Program-made: the position numbers and the translations under genes
Notes under the pieces: model-generated
What the model was told of the DNA's origin: nothing
The model's database searches: none
The model's input: the letters and a program-made list of their open reading frames with translations, nothing else
NCBI RefSeq assembly: GCF_013315695.1
Contig: NZ_CP054353.1
Reading direction: 5' to 3' (one strand)
Origin: Escherichia coli
GTDB taxonomy: Bacteria; Pseudomonadota; Gammaproteobacteria; Enterobacterales; Enterobacteriaceae
DNA: 64,000 nt
Shown: positions 3,713 through 60,660 of the stretch, in pieces
How the letters are laid out: every line of letters begins with the position of its first letter
How positions within the stretch are numbered: the stretch's first letter is position 1

Positions 3713-5138
3713 TAATGCCGATCAGTTAAGGATCAGTTGACCGATCCAGTGGCTGTGTAAGAATCCGGAAACGCTCACTTGTTTCCGGATTTTTTTATGC
3801 ACATTGGACAGGCTCTTGATCTGGTATCCCGTTACGATTCTCTGCGTAACCCACTGACTTCTCTGGGGGATTACCTCGACCCCGAACTCATCTCTCGTTG
3901 CCTTGCCGAATCAGGTACTGTAACGCTACGCAAGCGCCGTCTTCCCCTCGAAATGATGGTCTGGTGTATTGTTGGCATGGCGCTTGAGCGTAAAGAACCT
4001 CTTCACCAGATTGTGAATCGCCTGGACATCATGCTGCCGGGCAATCGCCCCTTCGTTGCCCCCAGTGCCGTTATTCAGGCCCGCCAGCGCCTGGGAAGTG
4101 AGGCTGTCCGCCGCGTGTTCACGAAAACAGCGCAGCTCTGGCATAACGCCACGCCGCATCCGCACTGGTGCGGCCTGACCCTGCTGGCCATCGATGGTGT
4201 GTTCTGGCGCACACCGGATACACCAGAGAACGATGCAGCCTTCCCCCGCCAGACACATGCCGGGAACCCGGCGCTCTACCCGCAGGTCAAAATGGTCTGC
4301 CAGATGGAACTGACCAGCCATCTGCTGACGGCTGCAGCCTTCGGCACGATGAAGAACAGCGAAAATGAGCTTGCTGAGCAACTTATAGAACAAACCGGCG
4401 ATAACACTCTGACGTTAATGGATAAAGGTTATTACTCACTGGGACTGTTAAATGCCTGGAGCCTGGCGGGAGAACACCGCCACTGGATGATACCTCTCAG
4501 AAAGGGAGCGCAATATGAAGAGATCAGAAAACTGGGTAAAGGCGATCATCTGGTGAAGCTGAAAACCAGCCCGCAGGCACGAAAAAAGTGGCCGGGACTG
4601 GGAAATGAAGTGACAGCCCGCCTGCTGACCGTGACGCGCAAAGGAAAAGTCTGCCATCTGCTGACGTCGATGACGGACGCCATGCGCTTCCCCGGAGGAG
4701 AAATGGCGGATCTGTACAGTCATCGCTGGGAAATCGAACTGGGATACAGGGAGATAAAACAGACGATGCAACTGAGCAGGCTGACGCTGAGAAGTAAAAA
4801 ACCGGAGCTTGTGGAGCAAGAGCTGTGGGGTGTCTTACTGGCTTATAATCTGGTGAGATATCAGATGATTAAAATGGCGGAACATCTGAAAGGTTACTGG
4901 CCGAATCAACTGAGTTTCTCAGAATCATGCGGAATGGTGATGAGAATGCTGATGACATTGCAGGGCGCTTCACCGGGACGTATACCGGAGCTGATGCGCG
5001 ATCTTGCAAGTATGGGACAACTTGTGAAATTACCGACAAGAAGGGAAAGGGCCTTCCCGAGAGTGGTAAAGGAGAGGCCCTGGAAATACCCCACAGCCCC
5101 GAAAAAGAGCCAGTCAGTTGCTTAACTGACTGGCATTA
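3713..5138 (+). mobile_element. IS4 insertion sequence, complete (1426 bp)
   Basis: Terminal inverted repeats TAATGCCGATCAGTTAAG (left) and CTTAACTGACTGGCATTA (right); single DDE transposase ORF; flanked by 13-bp direct repeat. Confidence 0.9.
3797..5125 (+). CDS. insG: IS4 transposase (InsG-like)
   Basis: 442-aa ORF from [16 protein letters not shown]; ORF track extends 6 codons upstream to 3779. Confidence 0.9.
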
Positions 5139-52821: not shown

Positions 52822-52977
52822 GCGCCCCCCTTCATTAGCTGAAACAAAGAGTAAACGCCCCGCCCTTTACCGGATATTCGGCGCCGTTGTAGCGGTGTTC
52901 TTACAACAACCCCGCCTTGAGATGCCATCCCCTCCCCCCGCATGATGGAATACACCATTCCGGAAAGGAGATTTTTC

Positions 52978-56588: not shown

Positions 56589-56879
56589 ATGTTTCAGAGA
56601 ATTTACGACCACATTACGTTTTTCACATCCGTCATGGTCACCGGTATAGGGGTTATGACGCTGAGCGAGAAGATGGCGCTGGCCGGGCTGATTCTGGGGG
56701 CTCTTTCTCTGCTGCGTGGATGGATGCACAGAACACGTATGGAGCAGGCACAGGAGCGCCGCAACGAGCTTATTGCACGCATAGCCGACCAGATGCAGCA
56801 ACGACCACTAAAAGGCAGCGAGAAACGCGCTCTGGAGGCGCTGAAAGCAGACGGAGATACTCATGGGAAACCAGGTTAA
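56589..56879 (+). CDS. holin (gpY-like)
   Basis: 96 aa from MFQRIYDHITFFTSVMVTGIGVMTL with TM segments. Confidence 0.7.
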   Translation: MFQRIYDHITFFTSVMVTGIGVMTLSEKMALAGLILGALSLLRGWMHRTRMEQAQERRNELIARIADQMQQRPLKGSEKRALEALKADGDTHGKPG

Positions 56880-57402
56880 ACGTTATACCGTTGCCGCCAT
56901 CGTGGCGCTGGGTTTTTCGCTGGCCCCCGGGGAACTGAGAACCTCACAGGAGGCACAGGAAAAAATAGCCACGTGGGAAGACTGCCGGGCCGTTCCGTAC
57001 AGGGATATCGCCGGGGTGAAAACCGTGGGCTGCGGCTCAACGGGAAACGTGCCCGACCGCCACCACACCCAACAGGAGGTTGCCGGTCGCTGGGTGAATG
57101 ATTTGCGACGGGCAGAGAACTGCATCAATCAGAACTTCAATGGCCGCGACATGCCACAGCGCCACTTCGAGGCAATGACGGATGCCGCCTTTAATCTGGG
57201 GTGCAAAGGTCTGATGTGGTTTAAGGGGCGTGACGGGAGAATGCACAGAACAACCATCTGGAAGTTCGCTCAGGGAAAGAACTGGAACGCAATGTGCGGC
57301 AGGCTGACGGATTTTGTGAACAGCGGCGGACGCTATTCACAGGGGCTGTTTAACCGACGGGACGACTTCCGGAAATGGTGTTCACAGGAGAACAAAACAT
57401 GA
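56863..57402 (+). CDS. endolysin (gpK-like lysozyme)
   Basis: 179 aa; lysozyme family context and position after the holin. Confidence 0.8.
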   Translation: MGNQVKRYTVAAIVALGFSLAPGELRTSQEAQEKIATWEDCRAVPYRDIAGVKTVGCGSTGNVPDRHHTQQEVAGRWVNDLRRAENCINQNFNGRDMPQRHFEAMTDAAFNLGCKGLMWFKGRDGRMHRTTIWKFAQGKNWNAMCGRLTDFVNSGGRYSQGLFNRRDDFRKWCSQENKT

Positions 57403-57842
57403 GAGTCACCGTCATCATTGTCTGGCTGGTTGTGACGCTTCTGTTATGTGGGCTGGTCGGCTGGGAAGCATACCGCAAGGGGCAGGAAAGTCTGGGGAGA
57501 CAACAAATGATGGATGTCATCGAGGACAACCGGGCCGCCATGCATGAAGTCCGCGAGGCATACAGCGATTTTTCGCGGGTGATTAACATCATCCGGATCC
57601 TGGACCAGCAACGCATCACCGAAGGAGAGCAACGACGTGAAGCTATGCAGAAGGCCGCACAGAATGATGCGTGTGCTGGCGCTCATCCTCCTGGCGCTGT
57701 CACTGAGCGGCTGCAACAGCACATCGCACACGTTGAAAACCAGACTCGTTTACGAGCCGGTGCCGGAAGTACTGACAAGGCAGACGCCGATCCCCTTTCT
57801 GGAGCGACCGGTGACCTGGTACCGGATAACCGAATGGAGTGA
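57396..57842 (+). CDS. i-spanin (Rz/LysB-like)
   Basis: N-terminal TM MRVTVIIVWLVVTLLLCGLVGW followed by a charged helical domain. Confidence 0.6.
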   Translation, partial: NMRVTVIIVWLVVTLLLCGLVGWEAYRKGQESLGRQQMMDVIEDNRAAMHEVREAYSDFSRVINIIRILDQQRITEGEQRREAMQKAAQNDACAGAHPPGAVTERLQQHIAHVENQTRLRAGAGSTDKADADPLSGATGDLVPDNRME

Positions 57843-57948
57843 CCAGTTACTGGCTGCGCTGGATACATGCAACACAGACAAAGCCGCAATAGCCTGGCTG
57901 GACAAGCAGAGGGCAGAACGGGCGCAAGATGCACCCAATCAGGAGTAG
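57637..57948 (+). CDS. o-spanin lipoprotein (Rz1/LysC-like), embedded/overlapping frame
   Basis: Lipobox LALSLSGC; likely real start at the internal Met near 57664. Confidence 0.6.
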   Translation: MKLCRRPHRMMRVLALILLALSLSGCNSTSHTLKTRLVYEPVPEVLTRQTPIPFLERPVTWYRITEWSDQLLAALDTCNTDKAAIAWLDKQRAERAQDAPNQE

Positions 57949-57951
57949 ACG

Positions 57952-59889
57952 ATGAGCAAAAAACATTTTGAGTTGATTACCGCCATGAGCCGTACGGAGC
58001 TGGCTGAGAAAGTTAACGAACGTCTGGCGCTGGGCTGGCAGCTTCAGGGCGACGCACAGGTTGCGTCAGAGCCGGGCGTGCCGTGGTATTTGATGCAGGC
58101 CATGACCGGTGATCAGCCCGTCACCGACGAGCCGCAAATTGCTGTGGATGACGAAGGGAACACAATCAACGAACCGGAATACTACTTCGTCATTGCTCTG
58201 GCCGGGCAATCCAACGGCATGGCGTATGGCGAAGGTCTGCCGCTGCCTGAGACATACGATCGCCCCGATCAGCGCATTAAGCAACTGGCACGCCGCAGTA
58301 CTGTCACGCCGGGTGGTGCGTCCTGTAATTACAACGACATTATTCCTGCGGACCACTGCCTGCATGATGTTCAGGATTTGAGTAAGTTTTCACACCCGAA
58401 AGCCAGCGCAGCTCAGTATGGATGCGTGGGGCAGGGATTACATATCGCGAAGAAATTGTTGCCGTTTATTCCGGCGAATGCGGGCATTCTTCTGGTTCCG
58501 TGCTGTCGTGGTGGATCTGCGTTTACTACAGGGGGTGATGGCGCTTTCAGTGAAACAACCGGTGCAACAGAAGCATCGTCTCGTTGGGGGGTCGATAAAC
58601 CGTTATACAAGGATCTACTCACCCGAACAAAAGCCGCACTGAAAACCAACCCTAAAAACATTCTGCTTGCAGTGGTCTGGATGCAGGGCGAGTTTGACTT
58701 AAAACAAACAACGGCATATTCCAACCAGCCAGCGGCGTTTGATGCCATGGTGGCAAAATACCGCTCCGATCTGGCGGGCGTATCAGGTCAGTGCGTTGGT
58801 GGCTCTTCATCATCAGTACCCTGGATTTGTGGTGATACAACTTATTACTGGAAAGAGACATATCCAACCGAGTACGGTGTTGTCTATGGCGCATACAAAA
58901 ACAAGCAGGCTAAAAACATCTTCTTTGTGCCGTTTATGACGGATGAAAACGGTCAGAATGTTGGCACCAACGAGCCAGATGAAGATCCTGATATCACTGA
59001 AATCGACTATTACGGTTCTGGATGGCGCAAAGATAAAACCACATGGACAACGGCAGATCGTAAAACTCACTTTGGCTCATGGGCACGTCGGGGAATTATT
59101 TCAGATCGTCTTGCTACAGCAATAATTGAGCATGCAGGTAAAACGGAAGCACTTGTTTATGGCAGGGTAACGCTCAGTAAAGAGGAAGAGCGCCCGGAAG
59201 AGGAAGATGAACCCATTGTAAAACCCACAGCTGAACAGTCAGTTATACTTTACGACGCTAAAAATGCCTCAGATACCAATTTACAGGCGCTGAACTGGGA
59301 GTTGAAGGATGTCACCCCCTCTCTGATTCAGGAGGGAAGTAATAAGGCGTTGCGTCTTGAGAAAAGCAACAGTGCGAAACCATGGTCATTACTTCATAGT
59401 ATTGCAGCCGAAAAATCAGGACAACTTCTGGAAAAAGGCGGAGAAATTTCCGTTCGCTTCAAAATACCTGAAAACACCTCTCTTGATACAGGAAAAAATA
59501 AGTATGTGTTAGGGCTGTACTGGAAAATAGCGGGATGGCCAGGTGATGGCGGAGAAGGCTATCTGAGTTCTTTTCTTGTTCAGACAGATAAAGCAAACCT
59601 GGATGTTGTTTACCATTACAACAGTAATCAACTGAAAGATATTGGTACATTTGATGAGTTTGATCATGACTGGCATACGCTCGCATTCAGGTTTGAAGGC
59701 GGTAACAGCCTCAGCGTTACACCGGTGCTCGATGGTAAAGATGGTCAGGCGTTTGATCTTGTTAAGTGGACTAATTCAGCTAATGAGGCCAATAAGTTTA
59801 TTTTGACCGATATTACTGGCACAGCTGAAACGTATCCTGTCCTTATTGAGACAATCGAAGTTAAAGCAAACCAGGCAGCAGCGAAATAA
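57952..59889 (+). CDS. NanS-p-like SGNH/sialate O-acetylesterase-family protein (DUF1737-type N-terminus + esterase + C-terminal domain)
   Basis: 645 aa; N-terminus MSKKHFELITAMSRTELAEKVNERLALGWQLQGDAQV; esterase motif VIALAGQSNGMAYGE (GQSN). Confidence 0.75.
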   Translation: MSKKHFELITAMSRTELAEKVNERLALGWQLQGDAQVASEPGVPWYLMQAMTGDQPVTDEPQIAVDDEGNTINEPEYYFVIALAGQSNGMAYGEGLPLPETYDRPDQRIKQLARRSTVTPGGASCNYNDIIPADHCLHDVQDLSKFSHPKASAAQYGCVGQGLHIAKKLLPFIPANAGILLVPCCRGGSAFTTGGDGAFSETTGATEASSRWGVDKPLYKDLLTRTKAALKTNPKNILLAVVWMQGEFDLKQTTAYSNQPAAFDAMVAKYRSDLAGVSGQCVGGSSSSVPWICGDTTYYWKETYPTEYGVVYGAYKNKQAKNIFFVPFMTDENGQNVGTNEPDEDPDITEIDYYGSGWRKDKTTWTTADRKTHFGSWARRGIISDRLATAIIEHAGKTEALVYGRVTLSKEEERPEEEDEPIVKPTAEQSVILYDAKNASDTNLQALNWELKDVTPSLIQEGSNKALRLEKSNSAKPWSLLHSIAAEKSGQLLEKGGEISVRFKIPENTSLDTGKNKYVLGLYWKIAGWPGDGGEGYLSSFLVQTDKANLDVVYHYNSNQLKDIGTFDEFDHDWHTLAFRFEGGNSLSVTPVLDGKDGQAFDLVKWTNSANEANKFILTDITGTAETYPVLIETIEVKANQAAAK

Positions 59890-59896
59890 TAAAAAA

Positions 59897-59919
59897 CCCC
59901 CTCCGGCATTCGGAGGGGG
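59897..59919 (+). terminator. hairpin terminator immediately after the esterase gene
   Basis: CCCCCTCCG-GCATT-CGGAGGGGG directly after the stop codon. Confidence 0.55.
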
Positions 59920-60189
59920 AGAGAAACTAACCATTAAAAACGAATATCTATAAGCATCTCAATTCTGGCGTTTTACACCATCACACGCAATGCAAAGGAG
60001 CAATGTATGAATTTATTTCAACAGTCCATGTTGTATTTCAGTGCTGCAGTATGCGTCATATGGGTGTGATAAGGCAGACAGAACTTCCGGAACAAAAAAC
60101 AAATAAGGCAGCAGTAAGAAAAGCAGCTGGCGGTACAACTAACCGATCCTGAAATAGCCTGCCATACACAACAAACAGACGGTGTTTTT

Positions 60190-60660
60190 ATGCTGAAAAT
60201 GAACTCATTACGCGAAGCACTGACCAGCAACTGCCGGTGGTGCAAAGCCAATCCGGAAAAATTCACGGTATTCACTGAGTCCGGAGGCATTGAGACCACC
60301 GCAGAAAGACCGTCATTTCTGTATCGCTACAACCTGGTCGTTTTCATCATGGATTTCACGGAAAGCATCGACAACATCATGCTGCCGGTAATGGCGTGGC
60401 TGTACCGCAACCAGCCTGACCTGCTGCTTAATCCGGAGAAGAACAAAAGCATTAAATTTTCGACGGCCATTAACGACGATGACAGCGCCGATATCCTGCT
60501 GGAAATCCCGGTATGGGAACGCGTGATTGTACGCCGCAACGATGACGGCACGGTAACGGCAGAGCATATCGGTGAGCCACCGATAAGCCGGGCACTGGAA
60601 GCATGGCGAGTGGTCTTTGAAGACATGACATGGAAAACCGCAGAAGAGGCCGGGGCATGA
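60190..60660 (+). CDS. P2 gpR-like tail completion protein
   Basis: 156 aa; synteny R-S-V-W-J-I. Confidence 0.8.
   Translation: MLKMNSLREALTSNCRWCKANPEKFTVFTESGGIETTAERPSFLYRYNLVVFIMDFTESIDNIMLPVMAWLYRNQPDLLLNPEKNKSIKFSTAINDDDSADILLEIPVWERVIVRRNDDGTVTAEHIGEPPISRALEAWRVVFEDMTWKTAEEAGA

Follow-up and report, generated by a model that had tools for sequence, protein, structure and literature searches.

In this study, we found that the non-coding stretch that separates the esterase gene of an Escherichia coli P2-like prophage from its tail completion gene, gpR, very probably consists of a DUF1378-family pseudogene (60007-60152), its conserved leader, and a hairpin that follows the esterase gene. 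The pseudogene is an ordinary, unannotated one of a known family. The window, i.e. the whole 64,000-nt stretch of DNA that was analysed, ends in the late region of this prophage (last 8 kb), where the genes are ordered K, lysB, lysC, esterase, non-coding stretch, gpR, S, V, W, J, and I. Counted from the hairpin, the gap measures the 270 bp given in the initial annotation, whereas the full non-coding stretch between the end of the esterase ORF (59889) and the start of gpR (60190) covers 300 bp (59890-60189). PGAP, as applied to the E. coli MSB1_4I genome, has no annotation within the gap, and no repeats of the gap were found elsewhere in the window. The features of the region are given below, where L085 and L082 denote two P2-like loci that carry an intact DUF1378 gene, and our own profile is a DUF1378 profile built from 21 intact proteins.

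56863-57402: lysozyme gene K.
57375-57842: lysB.
Inside 57637-57948: lysC.
57952-59889, plus strand: gene for a 645-aa NanS-p-type esterase (Pfam DUF1737, SASA, and DUF6645; PGAP 'DUF6645 domain-containing protein'), inserted between lysC and gpR.
59887-59919, minus strand: hairpin, with its stem at 59897-59919 and a T-run at 59887-59896 (terminator scan, MFE and centroid folds).
59963-60006, plus strand: DUF1378 leader including the SD AAAGGAG, 84% identical to L085.
60007-60069, plus strand: 20-codon ORF MNLFQQSMLYFSAAVCVIWV, the N-terminal (transmembrane) remnant of DUF1378 (profiles, DNA identity, synteny).
60003-60152, plus strand: 49-codon ORF, an artefact in which an out-of-frame N-terminal part is joined to the old C-terminal frame.
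60067-60072, plus strand: tandem stops TGA TAA, where L085 has TTA TCC, encoding Leu-Ser (alignments).
60073-60099, plus strand: middle remnant in the 60007 frame (alignments; positions 30-35 of our own profile).
60099-60152, plus strand: C-terminal tail remnant in the -1 frame (frame translations; positions 34-50 of our own profile; DNA homology to L082).
60190-60660, plus strand: gpR tail completion gene (Pfam P2_Phage_GpR, E 4.6e-40; PGAP 'phage tail protein').

Two observations concern the flanking genes. The longest ORF for gpS, with its start at 60630, has a 31-nt overlap with gpR, which shrinks to 4 nt if the PGAP start at 60657 is used. In MSB1_4I, PGAP flags lysC as partial with its N-terminus missing; in the window (57637-57948; positions 3878-4069 of the E. 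coli locus L001) lysC is an open frame with the typical lipoprotein signal MMRVLALILLALSLSGC, and it therefore looks intact.

The sequence elements described in the initial annotation are indeed present: AAAGGAG at 59994-60000, followed after 6 nt by ATG 60007, a 20-codon ORF that runs from this ATG to TGA TAA, and an overlapping 49-codon frame from ATG 60003 to 60152. Since as many as 98 ORFs of at least 20 aa are listed in 7 kb, ORFs of such size prove nothing alone, and what raises the 60007 ORF above chance is its homology to phrog_494, to DUF1378, to our own profile, and, at the DNA level, to L085. The peptide MNLFQQSMLYFSAAVCVIWV matched positions 1-19 of the 59 positions of both Pfam DUF1378 (PF07125; 15.8 bits, E 0.016) and phrog_494 (E 2.5e-4), and scored 26.5 bits against our own profile. 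Being a fragment, the window copy stays below the curated DUF1378 threshold of 25 bits for whole-model membership, whereas a full-length intact relative reaches 119 bits, and it lacks the uninterrupted 54-64 aa ORF with an apolar helix and a basic tail. By DNA homology it descends from loci with an intact DUF1378 gene. Pfam gave no match for the 49-aa ORF or for two minus-strand ORFs, the DUF1378 model is absent from NCBIfam, and a homologous protein search with the L085 protein returned only 4 close clusters, all of them DUF1378.

The DUF1378 (phrog_494) proteins are small proteins of Stx and other lambdoid phages, e.g. 933W and VT2-Sakai H0119. The window copy resembles this family in its N-terminal 19-20 residues and in its slot directly 3' of a NanS-p-type esterase gene. 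Unlike the family, however, it is interrupted by stops at codons 21-22, has lost 12 nt, is frameshifted, and has received no PGAP annotation, and the prophage in which it sits is P2-like and not lambdoid.

The DNA alignments trace the pseudogene beyond its first 20 codons. Positions 59892-60070 of the window are 81% identical to L085 and L092 over 179 nt (E 2.6e-42), homology to L085 resumes at 60082-60127, and the alignment to L082 extends from 59994 to 60133 (68% over 154 columns, E 4e-8). Like the P2-type DUF1378 alleles, the window copy has the leader and the SD, and its middle and C-terminal parts can be followed in the DNA. Three lesions were found. First, TTA TCC of L085 (Leu-Ser, codons 21-22) is replaced by TGA TAA at 60067-60072; second, 12 nt are deleted relative to L085 at a point adjoining 60079/60080; and third, 1 nt is deleted at 60099/60100. 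Past the stops, the 60007 frame reads GRQNFRNKK as compared to YKAVRNFWNKK in L082, and past the 1-nt deletion the frame of the 49-codon ORF reads TNKAAVRKAAGGTTNRS followed by a stop, as compared to IDEAAARKSAGGAVNGV in L082. Our own profile matches the three pieces colinearly across the two frames, although nearly all of the score comes from the first piece (0-2 bits for each of the other two); for the C-terminal remnant, which has just 1-2 bits against the protein profile, the homology lies mainly in the DNA alignment and the colinearity. Identity to L085 is 86.7% over codons 1-20 and 87% in gpR, close to that of the leader, and falls past the stops to 74% and then to 51-55%, with 63 gap columns. 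Part of this drop arises because the tail of the window copy is of the L082 type and not of the L085 type.

Conservation in related prophages, on which the initial annotation had made its reading depend, is seen for one of the two frames. The 60007 frame is conserved together with its SD (the latter in L085, L090, and L082), whereas none of the relatives has the 49-codon frame open: it ends after 29 codons in L085 and L090, and shows no ATG and several stops in the remaining relatives. Its length in the window is due solely to the frameshift, which fuses it with the former C-terminal frame. The 49-codon frame was rejected as a gene, as it is open in no relative and its ATG at 60003 sits just 2 nt past the SD, compared to 6 nt for ATG 60007. 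As judged from these alignments, the 20-codon and 49-codon ORFs are two halves of one decayed DUF1378 gene. Thus, what had been proposed as a 20-codon micro-protein or leader-peptide gene is instead the broken 5' third of a 54-64 aa DUF1378 gene.

The position of the remnant fits the gene order seen elsewhere. IMG/VR contains 323 relatives of the esterase, and 80 IMG/VR loci encoding such relatives (esterase 55-64% identical, lambdoid contexts, without gpR) were analysed together with L001. In 73 of these 81 loci, a DUF1378 ORF beginning M..[..]Q.MLYF lies ~100-170 bp past the esterase gene. Two of the 73 are copies of the window allele; the remaining ORFs have 59-64 aa, save a few that are truncated or cut at contig ends, with MTFIHQVMLYFCTAVCVLYLLSGGYRAVRDFWRRQIDKRAAEKISASQSAGSKPEEPLIP as a typical protein. 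Pairwise comparison of intact DUF1378 copies gave pS of 0.6-0.9, which is near saturation, and pN of ~0.2. On the sequence evidence, intact DUF1378 is under strong purifying selection and is a real coding gene. In the intact proteins, residues 7-25 form an apolar run of 19 residues, after which comes a tail that carries a net charge of +3 to +4.

Phage records with a DUF1378 gene number 309, and almost all belong to Stx-converting or other lambdoid phages, in which the order is Q - stx - esterase - DUF1378 - (DUF826) - S - R - Rz, and the esterase is also followed by DUF1378 in phiSTEC1589 and in an Stx1c phage. It has been reported that ORFs with DUF826 or DUF1378 domains sit between nanS-p and S (PMC10462455). 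The nanS-p region of Stx phages (PMC10462455, PMC8065619) thus has the same esterase-DUF1378 pair in a late operon beside lysis genes. In contrast, the pair of the window lies after K, lysB, and lysC and before the tail gene R, has no DUF826, and includes an esterase with only 55-64% identity to the lambdoid esterases. The surroundings of the esterase gene also vary: in L003, L036, L060, and L077, copies of the STnc100 sRNA and tRNA genes lie ~200-900 bp upstream of it, and AsxR lies just upstream of nanS-p in L060, whereas the P2-like loci L082, L083, L085, and L090 have no STnc100, tRNA genes, or AsxR there.

Among P2-like prophages, L082 and L083 retain the order lysC - esterase - DUF1378 - gpR with the DUF1378 gene intact, and their R-S genes are 76-87% identical to those of the window. 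PGAP names the product 'DUF1378 family protein' in both loci. The L082 protein has 54 aa and is identical in 14 E. coli genomes; that of L083 has 57 aa, and gpR follows only 15 nt downstream. A pattern scan identified three more P2-like contigs, L085, L090, and L092, with a 55-aa DUF1378 allele, MNLFQQVMLYFSTAVCVLWLLSGGYKAVKNFWNKKPDEAAARKSASGSGESNSLN, which is the closest to the window copy and is accompanied by a gpR with 91.7% protein identity to that of the window. In L082, ~100 extra bases separate DUF1378 from gpR (4329-4500), and these hold a second A-run and a hairpin, AAAAAACCCTCCGGTATACGGAGGGT, resembling the window hairpin after the esterase gene.

Between lysB and R, phage P88 (Peduoviridae) lacks both the esterase gene and the DUF1378 gene, so that the pair represents an insertion in the P2-like lineage of the window. 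The GC content falls from ~57% to ~42% at roughly 58800, in the middle of the esterase gene (the part encoding the C-terminal DUF6645), and stays low through the gap to ~60200. In L090, the end of lysB is identical to that of the window and the esterase is only ~50% identical, which points to the esterase as a recombination mosaic. In being absent from P88, in having a GC content below that of its flanks, and in its mosaic borders, the pair resembles morons. Unlike morons, it was not found to have its own promoter and plus-strand terminator, and it is apparently expressed within the late operon. The occurrence of the pair in P2-like prophages is already captured by RefSeq annotation; in the literature, NanS-p and P2-like prophages are both mentioned in PMC8065619 but not linked. 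The occurrence of NanS-p and DUF1378 as a pair in both lambdoid and P2-like prophages indicates that the two genes move together.

The truncated allele itself is rare. The gap is 100% identical in E. coli MSB1_4I (NZ_LR898874.1), which alone among 5426 complete E. coli genomes carries it, and the allele was also found in one IMG/VR contig (L002/L088) and in one metagenome contig (L091), all these copies being identical or nearly so. The gap as a DNA query had no match among phages and plasmids, and a scan of metagenomes for intermediate alleles yielded one window-identical copy, one L085-type copy, and no intermediates. In NZ_LR898874.1, two locations are reported for the gap query and likewise for the R-S query, and the additional location could represent another P2-like prophage that carries a related region. 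The sole match among species-representative genomes, in Paenibacillus tarimensis (L095, 3043-3140), was judged to be due to chance. It was made with a 22-base DUF1378 pattern, and the short, SD-preceded ORF of L095 shares only MLYFSAAV.

Taken together, these observations very probably reflect the following course. A two-gene module, consisting of the gene for a NanS-p-type sialate O-acetylesterase and then that for DUF1378, a 54-64 aa single-pass membrane protein, has been inserted between K-lysB-lysC and R. Elsewhere, the module is typical of Stx and other lambdoid phages, where it sits in the late region. The DUF1378 copy of the window has been broken by the tandem stops, the 12-nt deletion, and the 1-nt deletion. 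The late transcript from PO, at the Ogr-type site 52888-52905, would run through the esterase gene, pass the hairpin, since no U-tract follows it on the plus strand, cross the pseudogene, and enter R and S. Translation probably still initiates at the strong SD and ATG 60007 and yields a 20-residue hydrophobic peptide that, without the end of the membrane helix and the entire basic tail, is probably functionless, and gpR would be translated from its own start.

An alternative at this last step is that the truncated peptide continues to be produced and acts as a functional micro-protein in its own right, for example in the membrane during lysis or on the full-length DUF1378 of another prophage within the same cell. 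The SD and start codon are intact, strong, and well spaced, codons 1-20 are as conserved relative to L085 as gpR is, and the larger part of the apolar run is retained in the peptide (residues 7-20). This amounts, however, to 14 apolar residues without a tail, as compared to the 19 residues and charged tail of the intact proteins. The comparison of codons 1-20 with L085 (Sd 2.8, Nd 5.2, omega ~0.34) involves so few changes that it is not decisive. A loss of function is in line with the three independent lesions and with the decay past the stops, no other truncation at that point was seen among the 73 loci with a DUF1378 ORF, and, as described above, the allele is confined to a single complete E. 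coli genome. We therefore regard a functional micro-protein as improbable. The 20-codon stump is very likely a part of the pseudogene, and it may still be translated and tolerated.

The hairpin at 59897-59919, which had been described as an esterase terminator, has a 9-bp stem with 8 G-C pairs and is present in both the MFE and the centroid folds. With its T-run on the minus strand, it does not qualify as a canonical terminator of the plus strand. On the plus strand, where an intrinsic terminator is a G+C-rich hairpin followed by a U-tract, an A-run precedes the stem and AGAGAAACTAACC follows it, and the terminator scan scored the hairpin as terminator-like on the minus strand only. The same orientation recurs in relatives. 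With our own script, a minus-type terminator-like site was found upstream of DUF1378 in 22 of 29 distinct regions and a plus-type site in none of them, although these regions are related and so are not independent counts. The terminator scan agrees on the minus orientation for L036 (4972-4984) and L082 (4104-4129 and 4384-4404), the latter having one after DUF1378 too. The hairpins of the relatives share their orientation and differ in sequence, with T-runs on the minus strand, opposite to the genes, all of which lie on the plus strand. This orientation may have arisen because terminators acting on the plus strand are selected against within a late operon, or it may mark an antisense transcript.

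If it marks an antisense transcript, the minus-strand terminator at 59919-59887 would end an RNA that overlaps the leader and start of DUF1378, in the manner of a type I toxin-antitoxin system. The prevalence of minus-type sites after the esterase gene, the common orientation of hairpins that differ in sequence, and the nature of DUF1378 as a small hydrophobic protein are all compatible with such an RNA. On the other hand, no sigma-70-like minus-strand promoter was found in the window, L036, L082, or L083, the minus-strand fold is only at z -1.8, and the 29 regions, being related, cannot be counted as independent cases. A search of Rfam with eight related loci gave nothing in the spacer between the esterase gene and DUF1378, and a search with the gap (E up to 10) gave five sub-threshold matches only, all on the minus strand, which were rejected as chance matches driven by the hairpin and T-run. 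Moreover, a read-through operon would also tolerate a hairpin without a U-tract. For the window, we consider such an RNA highly unlikely. The more general proposal, that the minus-strand hairpin recurring in lambdoid and P2-like prophages belongs to an undescribed, type-I-toxin-like antisense RNA controlling DUF1378 beside the lysis genes of Stx phages, is also highly unlikely. If it were true, the well-initiated 20-residue peptide of the window would be a tolerated or disarmed form.

The initial annotation had supposed that transcription must resume for the tail completion genes after the esterase terminator, and that the gap might be a promoter region. On this reading, an Ogr-dependent late promoter or a sigma-70 promoter in the gap would restart R and S. 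The gap is AT-rich (~41% GC), and it contains four matches to TGT-N12-ACA with one mismatch, e.g. at 60065-60082. AT-richness is, however, all that it shares with the Ogr-dependent late promoters of P2, in which TGT-N12-ACA lies at about -55. No perfect TGT-N12-ACA was found in 59890-60189, whereas the same pattern recovered the control site (52888-52905), which lies between P and O at the expected location of PO; the 16 matches of the pattern in the window equal the chance expectation. The one-mismatch sites were rejected, since about the observed number is expected by chance and since they are not conserved or are badly placed, the 60065 site being missing from relatives and the 60160 site being too near the gpR ATG. 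When -35 and -10 hexamers with 16-18 nt spacing and at least 9 of 12 matches were required, no sigma-70-like site was found on either strand of 59700-60400. Nor is a stop after the esterase gene supported, given the hairpin without a plus-strand U-tract, and the DUF1378-gpR spacing of just 15 nt in L083 also counts against a restart. With R and S belonging to the PO operon in P2, a promoter in the gap is highly improbable. Most likely, transcription of the upstream late operon instead continues into R and S, which is the best inference from the lack of a plus-strand terminator, promoter, or Ogr-type site, the short L083 spacer, and the operon structure of P2.

That translation of the short ORF controls gpR as a leader peptide or attenuator, as a short SD-preceded ORF upstream of a gene might suggest, can practically be dismissed, because no plus-strand terminator was found in the gap and no terminator-like site at 60070-60189, upstream of gpR, the region does not fold in an unusual way (z -1.6), no Rfam leader reaches threshold, the weak matches being those minus-strand, hairpin-driven ones, and the start of the short ORF is, in relatives, that of a complete 54-64 aa gene.

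In summary, the analysis corrects an annotation gap by identifying a DUF1378 pseudogene, so far unannotated, in the interval from the esterase gene to gpR, and it removes a supposed promoter or leader-peptide region from this prophage. The pseudogene itself matters little, and its novelty is minimal. The NanS-p and DUF1378 pair known from Stx and other lambdoid phages is, however, also an insertion between lysC and R in a P2-like lineage, and the intact DUF1378 genes compared here point to clear purifying selection in a family without an assigned function.
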